This document shows, piece by piece, positions 52 to 25,828 of a stretch of DNA of 34,284 bases. The notes beneath the pieces are model-generated. The model was not told the DNA's origin. It saw nothing but the letters and a program-made list of their open reading frames with translations, and did no database searches. The translations under genes were made by a program, and so were the position numbers. Every line of letters starts with the position of its first letter. Positions within the stretch are counted from its first letter, which is position 1. The stretch lies in assembly GCA_007128345.1 (NCBI GenBank), contig SKXS01000024.1, forward strand, positions 1-34,284, read 5' to 3'. The DNA is from Spirochaetia bacterium (GTDB taxonomy: Bacteria; Spirochaetota; Spirochaetia; PWKH01).

Positions 52-1437
52 ATGATCGAAAGAATCCGAGAGCTGCTGAACAGGGAACCCGCGGAAATTC
101 CAGTAACCGCACAGGGATGGGTGCGCACCAAGCGGGATACGAAGCACGTCACCTTCCTGGAAGTGAATGACGGTTCGTGCCTTAAGAGCCTCCAGGTCAT
201 CATCGACCGGAATTCCAGGGAGGTAACCGATACGCTGAACCGGGTTTCCACAGGCGCCAGCGTCTCCTGCACCGGCAGGCTGGCTGAATCACCGGGGAAG
301 AACCAGAAAGTGGAACTGCACGCTGACACCATTGAGCTCATCGGTGAGGCTCCTCCTGAAAGCTATCCCCTGCAGAAGAAGCGCCACAGCTTTGAATTCC
401 TCAGGGAGATTGCCCACCTGCGTCCCCGCACTAACACCATCGGTGCTGTTGCCAGGGTCCGCAACGCCATGAGCAGGGCTGTGCACACCTTTTTCCAGGA
501 GCGTGATTTCCTGTATATCCACACGCCCATCATCACCACTTCAGACTGCGAGGGCGCCGGCGAGATGTTCCAGGTTACCACCCTGCCCCTGAACCAGGTC
601 CCCATGCGGGAGGGCTCACCAGACTACTCAAGAGACTTTTTCCAGAAGCCTGCAAACCTCACGGTCAGCGGGCAGTTGGAGGCGGAAATTTACGCCCTGG
701 CTATGACCAACGTATACACCTTCGGGCCTACCTTCCGGGCTGAGAACTCCAACACCAGCCGTCACCTCTCAGAATTCTGGATGATTGAACCTGAGATGGC
801 CTTCTGTACCTTGGAGGGAAACATGGAGGTCGCAGAATCCTTTCTCAAGTATGTCTTCTCCCACGTACTGGAGACATGCAGGGAGGATATGGAGTTTTTC
901 AATCAGTGGATCCAGAAGGGAGTCATCGATTCCCTCAGCTCAGTTGCCGAGGGGGTCTTCACCCGGATGACCTACACGGATGCGGTGAAGGAACTCACCG
1001 CCGCCCCGGTTTCCTTTGAGTATCCAGTCAGCTGGGGGGCAGACCTCCAGTCGGAACATGAGAAGTACCTCACTGAACAGGTGTGCAGAGGACCGGTGAT
1101 CGTCACCGACTATCCCAGGGAAATCAAGGCGTTCTACATGCTGCTCAACGACGACGAAAAGACCGTCCGCGCCATGGATGTGCTGGTGCCCAGGCTGGGT
1201 GAGATCATCGGGGGCAGCGAACGTGAGTACCGCTATGACGTGCTTACCCGGCGTATCCTGGAGTCGGGACTTGATCCGAAAGATTACTGGTGGTACCTGG
1301 ACCTTCGGCGATACGGAACGGTACCCCATGCCGGTTTCGGCCTGGGGTTTGAACGCGCCGTGCAGTATGTGACGGGCATGCAGAACATCCGGGACGTGAT
1401 CCCCTTCCCCAGGGCTGTAGGAAGCGCTGAATTTTAA
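52..1437 (+). CDS. asnS: Asparagine--tRNA ligase
   Basis: 461 aa. N-terminal OB fold ([16 protein letters not shown]), class II motif 2 ([25 protein letters not shown]), motif 3 ([11 protein letters not shown]), and the AsnRS-type [18 protein letters not shown] at 40-44. Confidence 0.97.
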
Positions 1438-1438
1438 C

Positions 1439-1460
1439 GGGATCCCGCGATGGGGATCCC
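1439..1460. terminator. Hairpin between convergent asnS and the 93-aa ORF; possible terminator
   Basis: GGGATCCC-gcgatg-GGGATCCC gives an 8-bp stem just after the asnS stop. No strong U-tract on either strand. Confidence 0.4.
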
Positions 1461-1469
1461 AAACCGCCC

Positions 1470-1751
1470 TCATCTCTCCTCAATGAAGGAACGCCATACG
1501 ATGTACGCCGTCCTGGCAGTGACGGGTATGCACATCGTATAGAGCACCACAAGGTATACAACCATCTCATGCATGAATGGATCAATGACTCCAGCAGCGG
1601 CTGTCAGGTGTATCACCGCTGAGGCAACCGCAGCTGCTCCGCAGAGAAGCACATCACTGCTGTGCACACTCTCCTTCCTCCATACACGCAGAGCAGCAAG
1701 AGATGCCATGAGAAATCCAAACCACAGCGCGTAGATAAGAAATCTGCTCAT
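1470..1751 (-). CDS. Small membrane protein (about 3 TM helices); candidate immunity protein
   Basis: 93 aa with three hydrophobic stretches (FLIYALWFGFLMASLAAL; VLLCGAAAVASAVIHLTAAAGVI; MVVYLVVLYTMCIPVTA). Starts 15 bp after the stop of the precursor gene on the same strand. Confidence 0.6.
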   Translation of the reverse strand: MSRFLIYALWFGFLMASLAALRVWRKESVHSSDVLLCGAAAVASAVIHLTAAAGVIDPFMHEMVVYLVVLYTMCIPVTARTAYIVWRSFIEER

Positions 1752-1766
1752 CAGGGATACCCGTCC

Positions 1767-2123
1767 TCAGTGTCCATAGCGGATATAGTACGATCCGATC
1801 CTGAAGGATGTCCCTGCCACCACCCCCAGTCCTGCCAGGGCGCCCGCTGCAGGGCTTACTGCAGCCACAGCGCCTATCGCGGCGGATTTCATCGTGCCCT
1901 CCCAGGTTGGGGTAATGTTTCTGCCCAGGCAGTCCGCCAGGTAGGTCAGGCTGCCAAAAATGGCGCCTCCCAGAAGAGCCTTAAACACCCCGTCACCTTC
2001 GGCATCCTCCATCTCGCACTCAGTCATCTGTTCGCCGGGTACTGAATCAAAGAGTCCCCCATGTGCCCATACGCCCTGTGCTGAAATCAGCAGAACCAGG
2101 ACGACCGTCACCATCTGTTTCAT
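1767..2123 (-). CDS. Secreted bacteriocin-like precursor: Sec signal, double-glycine-like leader, Gly/Ala-rich core
   Basis: Strong GGAGGT RBS. Signal peptide MKQMVTVVLVLLISAQGVWA. Acidic segment LFDSVPGEQMTECEMEDAEGDG resembles the F..Ls..EL..I.GG leader pattern. Hydrophobic core rich in GxxxG/AxxxA. The CDS is well supported; the function is inferred. Confidence 0.65.
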   Translation of the reverse strand: MKQMVTVVLVLLISAQGVWAHGGLFDSVPGEQMTECEMEDAEGDGVFKALLGGAIFGSLTYLADCLGRNITPTWEGTMKSAAIGAVAAVSPAAGALAGLGVVAGTSFRIGSYYIRYGH

Positions 2124-2147
2124 AGCGCACCTCCGTAACGATTGTAT

Positions 2148-2792
2148 TTACTCCCAGAGGAACGTAATGCCCGACTGCAGCGCCAGCCTCGTCATCTCGG
2201 CGATGGAGCAGGCTCCGGTCTTCCGGGATATCTGTTTTCTGTAGGATTCTACGGTATGATGGGAGAGCTTCAGCTCGTAAGCGATGGACTTGGTGGTTTC
2301 GCCCCGGCTGATGAGTCCCAGGACCTCCCGCTCGCGGACGGTCAGCTGCCTGACATAATTCTTCGCTTCCGTCCGCTCACGGGGATATGATAATCCCTTG
2401 GGCTCCAATTCCCTGCATTCACAGCGGCAGGGCTCAAGGAACTCCCTCACTGATGTGATCATCCGGGCATACTCCTCCGTGCAGTCAATGATCCGTGTGA
2501 TGCCCAGCGAGAGCAGCACAAGTTTCGTCCGCCGTTCAAGAGTACGGGGAGATCCGTAGGCCAGCACATGGGCTTCAGCAGTCAGGCGCATGAGCATCCA
2601 GGATACGCACTGGTCTCGCTCCACCAGCTCAGCCTCGATGCAGTAGACATCAATCCCTGGCATGGGTATGCTGCCCCGAAGGATATCAAGTTCTTCGTAG
2701 GCACAGACCACTGCACAGTTGCATTCACCTTCAAAGAGGTGCATGACCCCTTCCCTCAGCAGATTTGATTTACCGATGATTATTGAGTTCAT
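2148..2792 (-). CDS. LuxR/NarL-family transcriptional regulator with degenerate receiver-like domain
   Basis: C-terminal LuxR HTH: LTVREREVLGLISRGETTKSIAYELKLSHHTVESYRKQISRK. The N-terminus (IIIGKSNLLREGV...DVYCIE) aligns by eye to a receiver fold without the acidic pocket. Confidence 0.85.
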   Translation of the reverse strand: MNSIIIGKSNLLREGVMHLFEGECNCAVVCAYEELDILRGSIPMPGIDVYCIEAELVERDQCVSWMLMRLTAEAHVLAYGSPRTLERRTKLVLLSLGITRIIDCTEEYARMITSVREFLEPCRCECRELEPKGLSYPRERTEAKNYVRQLTVREREVLGLISRGETTKSIAYELKLSHHTVESYRKQISRKTGACSIAEMTRLALQSGITFLWE

Positions 2793-3087
2793 GCAATAGG
2801 TATTGGGGGATGCGGAATATTTGATTCACCTATGAAGCGACATTTGTATACATTTTTTCACAGGAGATAAACAGCGGAGAAACTCCTGTCCGATGCTGAC
2901 AGGGAAGACTGCAGGCACTACTAAGCATATTCAGCTGATCTGCAATGGCCCTTGCATCCTATACTGACGCATATGCATTTGCTGCATGGGGATTCCTCAA
3001 AGACGCACAGATCCCGTCATCAGAAGTACATTGAGCAGAGTCAATTACAGCAGATAATCACATCAGTTTGTTCCGCACACCAGTATG

Positions 3088-3606
3088 CTAGAGGAAGGTG
3101 ACCAGCTCTTCAAGGGCCTTCCGGTGCTTCTCCGTCTGTTTCTCATACCCGTCCCTCGGGTAGCCCAGGGGAGTGATCGCGAAGACCTCCTCATCCGTAC
3201 CCAGCGAAAGGGCGCTTGTGAGTAGGTTCGGGTCAAATGCGGCAATCCAGCAGGTGCCAACCCCTTCGCTGTCAGCGCAGAGGATCATGTGATCCATAGC
3301 GATGGTGAGATCGGTCTCAAGAGAGTTGTACCCGTCATGCTTTCGTGTCCAGGCATCTGCCCTTCTTCCGGCCACCGCCAATACAGCCGGTGCGTCCTGA
3401 AACCAAGGAGCTTCGTAGCTCTGCTTCACCTGGTCGAGCATATCCTTTGACGTAATGACGAAAAACCGCCACGGCTGACGGTTTGCTGCTGACGGTGCAA
3501 GCCTTCCCGCTTCGAGAATCCGCTTGAGCACATCCCTGGGTATCTTCCGATCAGGGTCGTAGTTCCTCACACTCACACGACTTTTGACGATCTGTACATA
3601 ATCCAT
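3088..3606 (-). CDS. Nitroreductase family protein
   Basis: Motifs R.SVRNY, AGRLAPSAANRQPWRF, GVGTCWIAAF and LGYP. Confidence 0.92.
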   Translation of the reverse strand: MDYVQIVKSRVSVRNYDPDRKIPRDVLKRILEAGRLAPSAANRQPWRFFVITSKDMLDQVKQSYEAPWFQDAPAVLAVAGRRADAWTRKHDGYNSLETDLTIAMDHMILCADSEGVGTCWIAAFDPNLLTSALSLGTDEEVFAITPLGYPRDGYEKQTEKHRKALEELVTFL

Positions 3607-22836: not shown

Positions 22837-23817
22837 TTATGACTGCCGTTTTGCAAGCCTGTGCAGGAGTCTGCTCAGCGATTCCCGCGCATCGCATGCG
22901 GGGAGCCTGGAAAGCTCCCGATTTGCCTGCTGTTCATAGCTGCGGGCTGTCCGCCGGGCCGCATCCACCCCCCCGATCCTATGTATCTCAGCGATAATCT
23001 CGGGAATCTGCCGGTCTCCGGGGACAGCACCATCAAGCATACGCTTCAGCTTTCCGCTGCGGTCCATCTCCAGGGCGCAGATAAGCGGAAGCGTAGCGAT
23101 GCCTACGGTGAGGTCCTTGCCGACATCCTTTCCCATCCGGTTCGGCCTGCCGGTAATATCAAGTATGTCGTCGTGCATCTGGAAGGAGATGCCCAGGTTG
23201 TATCCGAAACGGGACAAGGCCCGCACCTGTCCGGCATCGAGCTTGCCCGCCGATGCCCCCAGGTAGCAGCTCAGTGAAAAGAGGGCGGCCGTCTTCCCAC
23301 CAATGCGCCGTATGTAACGGCTCTTCGGAATAAAGAAGTTTCCTATCTCGCTGTCCTGGTCGATCTCACTCTCGCACAGCTTTGCCATACGGTCTGACAC
23401 CACTTTGCTGTCGTAGGAACGCTTCATATCCTGAGAGAGGAGCGCGAATGCCCTCACCAGGATATAGTCCCCGGCAACCACGGCCTTGCGGTTTCCGATG
23501 CGCCGATGCAGGGTCTCCTCCCCTCTCCTGGCGGAGGCCTCATCAATGATGTCATCGTGGATAAGTGAAGCAGCGTGGACCAGTTCAATGCCTGCAGCCA
23601 GGGCTGTCACTTCCTCCTGCTGGCTGCTGCCGCTGCCCACCCAGGAAGCAAGGATGAGCAGGGCAGGCCTGAGCATCTTGCCCTGCTGGCTTGCAATGTC
23701 CTGGAGATGCGGCCTGATGTACCCGCGGGCTCCTGAAAGGGTTCCTTTGATGTTGACGCGGACGTGTTCAAGCCACTCAGCAAGCAGTGGGTCCTGGTTC
23801 CAGTACTCGTTGCTCAC
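22837..23817 (-). CDS. Polyprenyl diphosphate synthase (heptaprenyl synthase component II; DmkB-like)
   Basis: Motifs GKMLRP, ELVHAASLIHDDIID...RRG, AGDY, GKTAALF, FQMHDDILD and GKD...G..TLP. Starts 7 bp after the ndh2 stop. Confidence 0.93.
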   Translation of the reverse strand: MSNEYWNQDPLLAEWLEHVRVNIKGTLSGARGYIRPHLQDIASQQGKMLRPALLILASWVGSGSSQQEEVTALAAGIELVHAASLIHDDIIDEASARRGEETLHRRIGNRKAVVAGDYILVRAFALLSQDMKRSYDSKVVSDRMAKLCESEIDQDSEIGNFFIPKSRYIRRIGGKTAALFSLSCYLGASAGKLDAGQVRALSRFGYNLGISFQMHDDILDITGRPNRMGKDVGKDLTVGIATLPLICALEMDRSGKLKRMLDGAVPGDRQIPEIIAEIHRIGGVDAARRTARSYEQQANRELSRLPACDARESLSRLLHRLAKRQS

Positions 23818-23824
23818 GATGCAC

Positions 23825-25828
23825 TTAGCCTTTCTTCCTGAATCTCTTCTTTCGGACTACGGGTTCATCCAGGTAGAGGTACGTCTTGTGGGCAAGCCTG
23901 CAGCCGTTCCACCACTTCTTGATCCACGGCATCACCCAGTAGTCCAAGCCGAAGCACTTGCCTGCGCCTCCAAGCATGACGATGGATACCGCAATGTACC
24001 AGAGAATTTCCTGGCTGGCCAACGCGCCCATGAGCAGCATGAGTGAAAGCCCGATGGACGCAATCGCCGCTGGAAAGGTGAAAAGACCGACAAGGAAGGC
24101 CAGGCCTAAGGCAATTTCCCCGAGCACGATGGACACCTGGAAGAAATACGGCGCCTGGGCAACAAAGGTCTCATTTACCCACTGAAAGATTGCCGTAGGT
24201 TCACTCAGCAGGGGCGGAGCATACTGCGCCACCTCACCGCCGCCTGGGGTTGCCATGGTAAGCGCGTCAGTTGCGGCGGTGACCCCTTCTGCCCCGTTCT
24301 CCCAGGGGGTTGAAGTGGTTACAGCTGACACCCCTTCTGCCCCGTTTTCCAAGGGGGTTGAGCTGGTCACAGCTGACACCCCTTCTGCATCGTTGGCTTC
24401 CCAGGTTGCCCCTGCGGTACCGTCAGCACTTCCCCAGTACACCTTTCCCCCGGTTGTGTCGCTAAGCCAGCCTTGGGGAATCTTCTTGGCTCCTTCAATG
24501 AACCACATAACTCCCAAATACATCCTGAGGAAGGTCAGCCAGTAGGACTGGAGCTTGGCAGTAGCAAGTCCTCCTATGAATGATCGTTTGTTCTTTATAT
24601 CCAGGATCTCATGCTGCAGGTAGCGCCACCATCCGTTGATGCCGCAGGTCGTATGCTGGTAGTAGACATTGACCAGATGCTTCAGCCCCATGGCGAATAT
24701 GCCCGACATGGCTATGCCCATGGTGTACGAGACCGCGTAGCGGCCCCCAATGGACACCATGTACCCGTGGAAATTTGACTTGAATGGTTTAGGCTCCTTG
24801 GCACTGAAGCCAAGTTCCTTGCGTATTTCATAGACCATGCTGTCTACGGCGGTGAAAGCGGTCTGTTCAGCGGCCTCAACTGTCTGGGGAAGCGGAAGCT
24901 CATGCTCAATAAACCATACGGCATCGCCTGCCAGGTAGACTCGGTCGTAATCAACGCTCTTCATGTACTCATTGACCCGCTTCCTGGCCATCATTCCTTC
25001 AGCGAGGGGGAGCTTCTGGGCAAAATCGCTGCCCTTGATGCCGCAGGTCCAGATCACCGTATCGGACTTGATAACCGTCTTGTCCTTCAATGTGATGCTC
25101 CCCGGCTCAGCCTTCACAATGAATGAATTGAGCTTGATCTCCACGCCTTTCTTTTTCAGGTACTTCTCTGCCTTCATGCGGGGCTTTTCCGGCCAGGTAT
25201 TGAGGATCTTGCCGAGGCCTTCAACGGTGATAATCTGTATCTCGTCGGGGTCGGCCTTGAACTCCTTACAGAGGACAGGAATCCATTCAATAAGCTCTCC
25301 CACCATCTCAATACCGGTAAATCCTGCTCCTGCAACCACAAAGGTGAGCATCTGCCTGCGGCGCTCAGGGTCCTTCTCGTAGGAAGCCGCACGTACAGTA
25401 TCCTTGATGTGCTCACGTATCTTCAGGGCATCTGCAAGTCCCCACAGCGAGAACGCGTGCTCCTTGATGCCGGGAATGCCAAAGTCAGAGGACTCCGCTC
25501 CGGTACCCATGAGCAGGTAGTCGTAGCCGTAAGTCTCTGTACTTGAGGTGAGCGTCCGCCCCTCAAAGTCAATGGAAACGATGGTATCCTGCACCACCTT
25601 GACCATGCTGCCGGCGAATATCCGGTCAAAGGATATTTTAACCGATTCCTCCGGGACCCTGCCCCCTGCCAGTTCATGGAGCTCCGTCATGAGTACATGG
25701 AACGGATCCTTGTCTATGAGGGTGATCTCCACCCGGTCGCGCATTTTCTTAAACTGTTTGTGCAGCTTCTTTGCCGCGTGCACTCCTGCATATCCCCCGC
25801 CCAGCACAACTATCTGTATTGGTTTCAT
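23825..25828 (-). CDS. Type II NADH dehydrogenase with C-terminal DoxX/TQO membrane domain (FLEET Ndh2-like)
   Basis: FAD motif VVLGGGYAG, NADH motif VVAGAGFTGIE, WTCG and AGD. C-terminal LRMYLGVMW..EG..K, E..LGLA.L.GLFT and GAGK.FGLDYWVMP are DoxD-like. GGAG RBS before ATG 25828. Confidence 0.92.
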   Translation of the reverse strand: MKPIQIVVLGGGYAGVHAAKKLHKQFKKMRDRVEITLIDKDPFHVLMTELHELAGGRVPEESVKISFDRIFAGSMVKVVQDTIVSIDFEGRTLTSSTETYGYDYLLMGTGAESSDFGIPGIKEHAFSLWGLADALKIREHIKDTVRAASYEKDPERRRQMLTFVVAGAGFTGIEMVGELIEWIPVLCKEFKADPDEIQIITVEGLGKILNTWPEKPRMKAEKYLKKKGVEIKLNSFIVKAEPGSITLKDKTVIKSDTVIWTCGIKGSDFAQKLPLAEGMMARKRVNEYMKSVDYDRVYLAGDAVWFIEHELPLPQTVEAAEQTAFTAVDSMVYEIRKELGFSAKEPKPFKSNFHGYMVSIGGRYAVSYTMGIAMSGIFAMGLKHLVNVYYQHTTCGINGWWRYLQHEILDIKNKRSFIGGLATAKLQSYWLTFLRMYLGVMWFIEGAKKIPQGWLSDTTGGKVYWGSADGTAGATWEANDAEGVSAVTSSTPLENGAEGVSAVTTSTPWENGAEGVTAATDALTMATPGGGEVAQYAPPLLSEPTAIFQWVNETFVAQAPYFFQVSIVLGEIALGLAFLVGLFTFPAAIASIGLSLMLLMGALASQEILWYIAVSIVMLGGAGKCFGLDYWVMPWIKKWWNGCRLAHKTYLYLDEPVVRKKRFRKKG
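24282..24388. repeat. 48-bp in-frame tandem repeat (about 2.2 copies) in the DoxX loop of ndh2
   Basis: ACCCCTTCTGC recurs at 24282, 24330 and 24378. Encodes AEGVSAVTSSTPLENG / AEGVSAVTTSTPWENG / AEGV. Confidence 0.92.

Follow-up and report, generated by a model that had tools for sequence, protein, structure and literature searches.

The closest published systems to the locus reported here are the FapD/FapF pair of Pseudomonas and the nap island of Neisseria. In the accessible portion of the Fap report, the C39 peptidase FapD carries a Sec signal peptide, is periplasmic and active, and its catalytic Cys is needed for secretion of FapC through the 12-stranded FapF; its target was reported as unclear and the Fap proteins as having no canonical C39 site (PMC5557850). 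The nap island, as described in the available part of its paper, encodes a putative regulator (NapR), three cationic helical peptides with a GG motif (NapA/B/C), an immunity-like protein (NapI), a holin-like protein with three transmembrane (TM) segments (NapH), a standalone C39 peptidase (NapP) and a FapF homologue (NapF); the peptides promote autolysis and were not antimicrobial towards other strains, and their passage across the inner membrane was left open by the authors, who suggested NapH (PMC11798529). We analysed contig SKXS01000024.1 of a Spirochaetia bacterium (34,284 nucleotides, hereafter the window), and in it a three-gene cassette encoding a LuxR/GerE-family regulator, an exported protein of 118 amino acids (aa) and a 93-aa membrane protein (Table 1). 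On balance, we favour the view that the 118-aa protein is a LuxR-controlled pre-pro-peptide, and that it is the only cargo of a module for periplasmic processing and export which resembles FapD/FapF (and Nap) and is encoded on another contig of the same genome.

The 118-aa protein divides into a signal peptide, an acidic propeptide and a Gly/Ala-rich core. Classical double-glycine leaders follow the consensus LSxxELxxIxGG, and the motif MTECEMEDAEGDG in the acidic segment keeps the correct spacing up to the first Gly (the invariant G43), with Asp/Glu where the second Gly is expected and with the whole segment placed behind a Sec signal peptide. The leader (aa 24–45) has a net charge of −8 and the core one of +3, the family means being −5.5 and +1.4. 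The AlphaFold model (predicted local distance difference test, pLDDT, 78.6) is all-helical, with helices at 2–20, 35–41, 45–68, 74–89 and 91–116, and breaks at EGD, after the short leader helix. In its acidic amphipathic leader, its L[ST]xxE[LM]...G-G spacing and its Gly-rich hydrophobic helical core, as well as in the small TM genes nearby and the CPBP/Abi and ABC-2 genes of related loci, the protein resembles class II microcins and other GG bacteriocins such as MccV; it differs from them in that the leader is internal, behind a Sec signal peptide, and ends in EG[DE]G instead of GG, and in that no peptidase-containing ABC transporter (PCAT, a C39-ABC fusion) was found. Neither of the two small proteins of the cassette matched a Pfam family at E ≤ 1 or gave a usable NCBIfam match, the sole NCBIfam row being MprF at E 0.072.

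An earlier note on this DNA had proposed such a dual leader for the 118-aa protein, and it proved to be a real feature of a family. A profile search over 1.84 billion representative proteins (cut-off E ≤ 1e-3) returned 51 matches, 33 of them short (75–171 aa) and 18 long (416–4740 aa). All 33 short matches share one plan: a Sec signal peptide (MKK...VFA/AP; here and below a slash marks the boundary), a variable spacer, an acidic motif and a variable Gly-rich hydrophobic core that often finishes in ...LPF. The motif reads DLFAxVxAxxLTxxExxxVEGEG in a 35-sequence alignment (A3), i.e. L[ST]xxE...EG[ED]G or GG. Outside the window's family, identity is highest in the leader (50%, against 41% for the signal peptide and 22% for the core, where gaps are many); this conjunction of conserved leader and variable core is the pattern of secreted peptide precursors, and it is reversed in the window's own family (see below). 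The source names encountered among its members were 'hypothetical protein' throughout, save one 'outer membrane lipoprotein SlyB'. A word-indexed homologue search gave six proteins at E ≤ 0.01 (alignment A1) and 14 at E ≤ 1e-5 (A3) among 8000 scored candidates, counts that are not family sizes.

Of the 18 long matches, six were inspected (P0007, P0009, P0010, P0012, P0016 and P0038) and rejected as spurious, each consisting of weakly matching stretches of the FG-GAP-like repeat 'DIDGDGDLDLVVGE' or of another repeat type. P0007 (4740 aa) and P0009 (3539 aa) contain 16–26 FG-GAP-like repeats (NPFxGIDVG...ADIDGDGDLDLVVGE..GTLKYYQNTG) whose weak matches are summed; giant repeat proteins of this kind are a trap for profile searches with the precursor family.

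Some relatives carry the leader in a more classical form. Canonical LSxxE[LM]xxxxGG spacing behind a Sec signal peptide was found in genomes G310 (LSSSEMEKEKGG/IALIVVIGG), G130 (LSDSEIVIITGG/), G288 (MTAGEMDETEGA/) and G353 (LCAEEMKMVQGG/), the precursor contig of the last ending before any C39 gene, with the peptidase on another contig. Genome G040 has three paralogous small precursor genes, interleaved with two small TM genes, whose products share an invariant E-G in the acidic stretch (e.g. AAEEMTTEEAAEIEGEG); one of the three has no signal peptide and a plain GG leader end (EIEGG/LPWW) in classical spacing, so that both export styles may coexist. What follows the leader varies by locus, being a Gly-zipper peptide, an Arg-rich 'HCDIIA' domain of ~150 aa (G288, G062 and G182), or another cargo. 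The HCDIIA proteins, which like the G108 cargo match no Pfam family, could represent another class of cargo, larger in size, on this route.

The machinery that could act on such a leader lies outside the window, which, as the earlier note had observed, holds no C39-ABC exporter. When the whole assembly of the window's genome (G000; the other four genomes of its family are coded G001–G004) was scanned with PF03412, a single match was obtained, to a standalone 201-aa protein without an ABC domain on contig C162 (E 3.3e-10, above the cut-off), and no PCAT was found in this assembly, which is 90% complete. The peptidase has a hydrophobic N-terminus that reads by eye as a Sec-type signal. The C39 catalytic set (Q/C/H/D) is intact: all of 22 such peptidases have H122 and P143, and each of Q30, C36 and D142 is kept in at least 90% of them. 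The best NCBIfam matches were C39_FapD (8e-8) and FilB (1e-7), neither coming near its curated cut-off, while PDB sequence matches were to the peptidase domains of LahT, PCAT1 and ComA; the G000 and G040 enzymes are 31% identical (E 1e-20).

Directly downstream of the G000 peptidase lies a gene for a 229-aa protein of no known family, whose model (16-row alignment; pLDDT 86.6, predicted template-modelling score 0.77) consists of a signal peptide followed by 12 β-strands. In a structural search with this model, the ten best PDB matches were all FapF (E 1.5e-8 to 1.4e-7, template-modelling scores 0.66–0.71). Outer-membrane barrels typically have a C-terminal aromatic residue, and many members of this barrel family finish in one. 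The order recO–C39–barrel–lon recurs in G001, G003 and G004 (in two copies in G004), and in G002 the peptidase stands at a contig start with recO adjoining. More widely, a barrel-profile match lies directly downstream of the C39 gene in 20 of 24 C39 loci; 16 of these 20 built the profile, and the four independent ones gave E values of 5e-16, 3e-8, 2e-6 and 3e-3. The likeness to Fap lies in a Sec-exported C39 peptidase with catalytic Cys and His, encoded beside a 12-stranded barrel, and in Sec-dependent substrates (accessible text of PMC5557850; PDB 5o65, 5o67, 5o68). The differences are that no FapA/B/C/E homologues and no amyloid repeats occur here, that the barrel has only 229 aa and no N-terminal coiled coil in its model, and that the substrates bear an explicit GG-type leader.

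Precursor and module are connected, in relatives, by position: a leader-bearing open reading frame (ORF) lies at most ~1.5 kb from the C39 gene in nine of the 24 C39 loci (G040, G132, G310, G400, G288, G130, G062, G182 and G108). They are connected also by co-occurrence. Among 401 genomes of the class, the C39 profile matched 24 at E ≤ 1e-8, in 23 cases in frames of 119–274 aa and in one in a 729-aa PCAT-like frame. The A3 profile matched 64 of the 401 at E ≤ 1e-3, mostly over model positions 1 to ~30 only, that is, over the signal peptide; most of these 64 were not counted as members because the match covers nothing but the signal peptide of unrelated larger ORFs. In 11 genomes the match extended over the motif (to model position 53 at least, E < 1e-5), and a standalone C39 peptidase was present in ten of them, the exception being G225, which is fragmented and has its match at a contig end. 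The co-occurring genomes span six families, and relatives among them are not independent. Within G000 the count is one to one: when a leader-only hidden Markov model (HMM) was run over the 28,975 six-frame ORFs of at least 40 aa, the 118-aa ORF scored E 2.5e-9 and the next one 4.3, and the full-length profile gave 6e-52 followed by 0.058.

A model of the complex between C39 residues 22–201 (22-row alignment) and precursor residues 21–70 (35-row alignment) scored 0.69, 0.66 and 0.72, against a best of three of 0.00 for the controls; the mark applied is reached by 116 of 157 solved complexes and by two of 215 mismatched pairs. At least 58% of contacts are common to the runs, and the pLDDT of the partner is 56–58. 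The modelled interface comprises precursor residues 24–25, 27–33, 35 and 37–45 and, on the C39 side, 36–37 (the catalytic Cys) and 120–123 (the His) among others. The model supports the predicted binding of the leader at the peptidase active site.

Taken together, we picture the following pathway. The precursor would leave the cytoplasm through Sec and, as its sequence suggests, be cut by signal peptidase I after VWA(20). In the periplasm the standalone, FapD/NapP-like C39 peptidase of contig C162 would bind leader aa 24–45 and cut at or beside EGDG(42–45), a step suggested by linkage in relatives, co-occurrence, the one-to-one count and the complex model; canonical spacing would put the first Gly at −2 and Asp/Glu at −1, and a cut after the second Gly is the alternative. 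At the outer membrane the 12-stranded barrel may then, by analogy with FapF and NapF, pass or receive the helical core, which is cationic, rich in Gly/Ala and 73 aa long. Once released, the peptide would most likely be membrane-active, bacteriocin-like or Nap-like, directed at competitors or at the producer's own envelope. To judge by position, LuxR would control the operon, and the 93-aa 3-TM protein would probably be accessory or protective, not essential to the system. As to the direction of its action, the CPBP, ABC-2 and small TM genes that neighbour the precursors of relatives suggest that the product is toxic to membranes. In the window's family the core is strongly conserved, the gene is single-copy and vertically inherited, and two genomes have lost the TM gene, all of which would suit a constrained role, perhaps directed at the producer itself as in Nap.

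By the description of its components in the accessible text, the nap island offers a counterpart for each part: LuxR would answer to NapR, the 118-aa protein to NapA–C, the 93-aa protein to NapI or NapH, and the C162 pair to NapP/NapF (PMC11798529). The autolytic role of the nap peptides, together with their lack of killing in the portion of the report available, would fit a conserved single-copy gene such as this one. The systems also differ. The term 'signal peptide' is absent from the nap paper's text as accessible, whereas the GG-type leader of the present protein stands behind a Sec signal peptide; the core here is 73 aa long and Gly/Ala-rich, against 16–36 aa in nap; and nap is described as a horizontally acquired island, whereas the present cassette is syntenic across three genera (PMC11798529). 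In addition, peptide genes and C39/barrel genes are unlinked in the window's family.

For the Spirochaetia as a class we tentatively suggest, at somewhat less than an even chance, a two-step route in which one precursor carries both a Sec signal and a double-glycine leader, is served by a FapD-class C39 peptidase and a FapF-like barrel, and delivers polymorphic cargo (glycine-zipper peptides, Arg-rich 'HCDIIA' domains of ~150 aa, and others) as far as, or through, the outer membrane; the cassette in the window would be a domesticated, LuxR-controlled version with a single cargo. The pairing of a periplasmic C39 peptidase with a FapF-type channel is already known. The points of difference here are the Sec signal ahead of a GG-type leader, the long Gly/Ala-rich core and the separation of the peptide operon from its machinery. 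In spirochaetes, PCAT-dependent GG proteins (tepA/B-linked) have been reported from Treponema denticola, in the part of that paper available (PMC11879956). A literature search that covered few subscription journals turned up neither a Sec-plus-GG precursor family nor a FapD/FapF-like pair described from spirochaetes. The precursors supply, in sequence form, both missing pieces of the published systems, namely a Sec signal for crossing the inner membrane (left open in Nap) and a leader for the periplasmic protease (unclear in Fap). If the proposal is true, they would be explicit natural substrates, with a recognition motif, for periplasmic C39 peptidases, and answers in this form make possible a simple biochemical test of a periplasmic C39 enzyme on a leader-core peptide. 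They also point to a general route by which diderms without PCAT/TolC systems could export hydrophobic peptides and small toxins.

The conservation of the locus bears on all of these readings. A search with the 118-aa protein of its own genome and 40 relatives gave matches (E ≤ 0.01) in six of the 41 genomes: its own, all four others of the same family, and G040, which belongs to another family (E 4.7e-4). The family orthologues are 38–57% identical over their full length. Across three genera the locus has been inherited vertically, in one copy and in synteny, and G001–G004 keep the order nitroreductase–luxR–118-aa gene–(TM gene)–asnS. The earlier note had described three tightly linked, co-oriented genes with gaps of 24 and 15 bp, which our reading of the ORFs and sequence bears out, and luxR lies upstream of the 118-aa gene in all four other family genomes. 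The third gene is less constant. It is present in G000, G001 and G002, but in G003 and G004 only 39 and 97 bp, respectively, separate the 118-aa gene from asnS, and a three-sequence profile (E ≤ 1) did not find it elsewhere in these genomes (85% and 81% complete). All five genomes keep the luxR-precursor and C39/barrel modules at fixed, unlinked positions.

Within this family, identity rises from 38% in the signal peptide to 46% in the leader and 55% in the core, and in a variant 88% identical to the 118-aa protein the 14 differences fall eight in the signal peptide, four in the leader and two in the 73-aa core. A conserved leader with a variable core, as foreseen in the earlier note, is thus what the wider family shows, but not the window's own; the TM gene expected to co-vary with the core is missing in two of the four relatives. 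Separately, a contig from run X4 carries six differences in the two small genes (window 1683, 1703, 1950, 1956, 1965 and 1992), of which, by codon reading, four are synonymous, one is S17A in the TM protein and one is D44E, by which EGDG becomes the EGEG of the family; D44E is also found in database proteins P0001 and P0002.

Several of these observations weigh against a C39-processed, exported precursor. The core is strongly conserved among close relatives, unlike those of diversifying bacteriocins, and the 93-aa gene is missing in two of four relatives. C39 peptidases take Gly, Ala or Ser at −1, and Asp/Glu at this position is atypical for them. The 73-aa hydrophobic core could stay in the inner membrane after Sec. 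The G000 peptidase reaches 31.8 bits, against a FapD equivalog cut-off of 330, and the resemblance of its neighbour to FapF is to be read with the readiness of β-barrels to match one another: NanC matched at 3.4e-6, there were 152 PDB matches at E ≤ 0.001, and FapF chains, though the sole PDB sequence matches to the barrel, have a non-significant E of 0.43. The complex model used alignments made in the same analysis, and since solved PCAT-leader complexes exist, its pass may reflect a memory of that likeness. Because precursor and C39/barrel genes are unlinked in the window's family, their pairing there rests on co-occurrence and on the count of one substrate and one enzyme, and the 90% completeness of the assembly leaves room for an unseen PCAT or further substrates.

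The first alternative, which we regard as unlikely, is that the 118-aa protein is a resident of the envelope, a two- or three-helix glycine-zipper protein whose acidic segment is a periplasmic linker, neither cut by C39 nor exported, and that the C39/barrel pair serves something else. It would account for the strong conservation of the core, the fixed place next to asnS in five of five family genomes and the predicted hydrophobic helices, and it has the SlyB name of one relative behind it. Yet the protein has no lipobox Cys at the end of its signal peptide (VWA/HGG) and no Gly-zipper Pfam match at E ≤ 1, and so does not look like a SlyB/Pcp-type lipoprotein; the acidic segment is a hallmark of the family, with canonical GG spacing in some relatives. 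The ORF is also the only leader-bearing one in a genome with one standalone C39 peptidase, precursors and peptidases are linked in nine loci, and the complex model passes its controls.

Improbable, in our judgement, is the reading put forward in the earlier note, a self-contained regulator–toxin–immunity unit in which the 118-aa protein is a competitor-killing class II bacteriocin or microcin, the 93-aa protein confers dedicated immunity and no FapD/FapF machinery is needed. An anionic leader joined to a cationic core would suit it, as would the distant relatives in G040, which are interspersed with small TM genes and lie close to CPBP and ABC-2 genes, and in an ESM Atlas feature search the nearest cluster was one auto-named 'Bacteriocin' (0.93, 190 of 256 features), which is a lead only. 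The bacteriocin-like character claimed for the protein holds, as one of ancestry, in so far as relatives lie in loci of bacteriocin-like make-up, with small TM, CPBP/Abi and ABC-2 genes, but it found no support in bacteriocin models, since neither Bacteriocin_IIc (PF10439) nor any other in Pfam or NCBIfam matched. The idea of a minimal unit fares worse: the genes for processing and export are probably on a different contig; in this single-copy, syntenic and vertically inherited locus, conservation is highest in the core; and a toxin exported by a Sec signal peptide alone would leave the conserved second leader unexplained. The earlier note had itself held that homologues conserved over their full length and unlinked to the TM gene would speak against it; the orthologues are so conserved, and two of the four relatives, G003 and G004, lack the TM gene at the locus and gave no match to it at other sites (E ≤ 1). 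The 93-aa protein belongs to no known immunity family.

We think it quite improbable that the core is exported through the barrel to polymerise outside as a Fap-like surface fibre or functional amyloid, a component of matrix or adhesion. Glycine-zipper proteins of the Cdz system are exported by a type I system, a point of difference from the present proposal, and have an adjacent small immunity protein. As proposed for the core described here, the contact-dependent bacteriocins CdzC/D of Caulobacter are small glycine-zipper proteins of a diderm acting at the cell surface, where, according to the accessible text, they can aggregate (PMC5380434). That precedent, the resemblance of the module to FapD/FapF and the fit of a conserved core to a structural role favour a fibre. 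Against it, a reading of the 118-aa sequence showed no Asn/Gln-rich imperfect repeats of the FapB/FapC amyloid type and the model is all-helical, cargoes are polymorphic, and the CPBP, ABC-2 and small TM genes of related loci suggest self-protection from a toxic product. Finally, the possibility raised in the earlier note of a peptide-pheromone circuit, with the processed peptide sensed through LuxR, seems to us very improbable: regulator and secreted peptide do come from one operon, pheromones such as ComC also have double-glycine leaders, and ComC-bearing ESM Atlas clusters scored 0.77–0.80 (below the lead threshold), but LuxR has no autoinducer-binding or receiver match that could make it a peptide receptor, no sensor kinase is adjacent, and a 73-aa hydrophobic product is unlike known pheromones.

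Table 1. Features of the cassette, its surroundings and related loci (positions in the window unless a contig or locus is named).
Feature	Position	Strand	Basis or remark
asnS, converging on the cassette	52..1437	+	
93-aa 3-TM protein gene, candidate immunity or accessory membrane protein	1470..1751	-	Kyte-Doolittle; in G000, G001, G002
Spacer between 118-aa and 93-aa genes, 15 bp	1752..1766	-	
118-aa gene	1767..2123	-	ORF list, synteny
118-aa gene, aa 46-118: 73-aa Gly/Ala-rich (34%) core	1770..1988	-	predicted helices 45-68, 74-89, 91-116
118-aa gene, aa 21-45: acidic propeptide HGGLFDSVPGEQMTECEMEDAEGDG, double-glycine-type leader	1989..2063	-	leader HMM E 2.5e-9; LSxxELxxIxGG spacing
118-aa gene, aa 1-20: Sec-type signal peptide MKQMVTVVLVLLISAQGVWA	2064..2123	-	by inspection; modelled helix 2-20
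Spacer between luxR and 118-aa gene, 24 bp, with Shine-Dalgarno GGAGGTG	2124..2147	-	direct sequence reading
LuxR/GerE-family regulator, 214 aa, first cassette gene	2148..2792	-	GerE helix-turn-helix at aa 149-204
295-bp stretch upstream of luxR, presumed promoter region	2793..3087	-	inference
Nitroreductase-like gene, upstream of the cassette	3088..3606	-	
C39 peptidase (201 aa) and barrel (229 aa) between recO and lon	G000 contig C162 ~22907-24198 (L042:8908-10199)	-	
~200-aa proteins: Sec signal peptide, GG-type leader (e.g. MTAGEMDETEGA), Arg-rich 'HCDIIA(R/Q)N' domain	L072:6075-6686 (G288); L068:6230-6820 (G062); L071:3983-4573 (G182)		beside C39/barrel pairs
Bacteriocin-like locus of G040: three precursors, two small TM genes, CPBP, C39, barrel, ABC ATPase, two ABC-2 permeases, OmpR-type regulator and histidine kinase	L008 (G040:C25:1-9500)		

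The regulator of the cassette matches PF00196 (GerE) at E 9.2e-15 (Pfam), and the NCBIfam response-regulator matches are confined to its C-terminal ~70 aa. Its N-terminal ~135 aa match no family; this part is receiver-like in length, without a REC hit, and no autoinducer-binding or receiver Pfam family matched at E ≤ 1. The Shine-Dalgarno sequence of the 118-aa gene lies at plus-strand positions 2128–2134, with 4 nt between its end and the ATG, and a Kyte-Doolittle scan of the 93-aa protein gave three hydrophobic stretches. A promoter and terminator scan of 1380–3150 reported no minus-strand site, including no sigma-70-like site upstream of luxR, where repeats are short and unconvincing. A palindrome (GGGATCCC...GGGATCCC) at window 1440–1462, between the facing stop codons of asnS and the 93-aa gene, went unreported by the terminator scan; it may form a hairpin, with no T-run, that terminates transcription in both directions.

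An RNA library (run X10) yielded one contig of 241 nt that matches window 2055–2295 with 0 mismatches and runs from the 3' end of luxR across the spacer into the 5' end of the 118-aa gene. Expression is hinted at weakly at best, as DNA carry-over is possible and the contig does not show transcript ends; a lack of RNA cover over other parts is uninformative. DNA contigs carrying the region came from runs labelled as soda-lake, salt-lake and alkali-sediment metagenomes.

Among the related loci, that of G040 includes a CPBP/Rce1-like protease (PF02517, 7.6e-12) and a standalone C39 peptidase of 215 aa (PF03412, 6e-10) whose N-terminus is hydrophobic; the next gene encodes a protein of 294 aa that belongs to no known family. 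Precursors have flanking CPBP genes in G040, G310 and G353, and ABC-2 transporters occur in G040 and G310. The G310 locus also encodes a 216-aa GerE regulator, which we considered as an orthologue of the window's LuxR and rejected, only the helix-turn-helix being held in common (E 0.023). Beside the barrel gene of G400 lies a PIN-domain/DUF6364 pair (L038:7026-7699), which is likely a toxin-antitoxin module.

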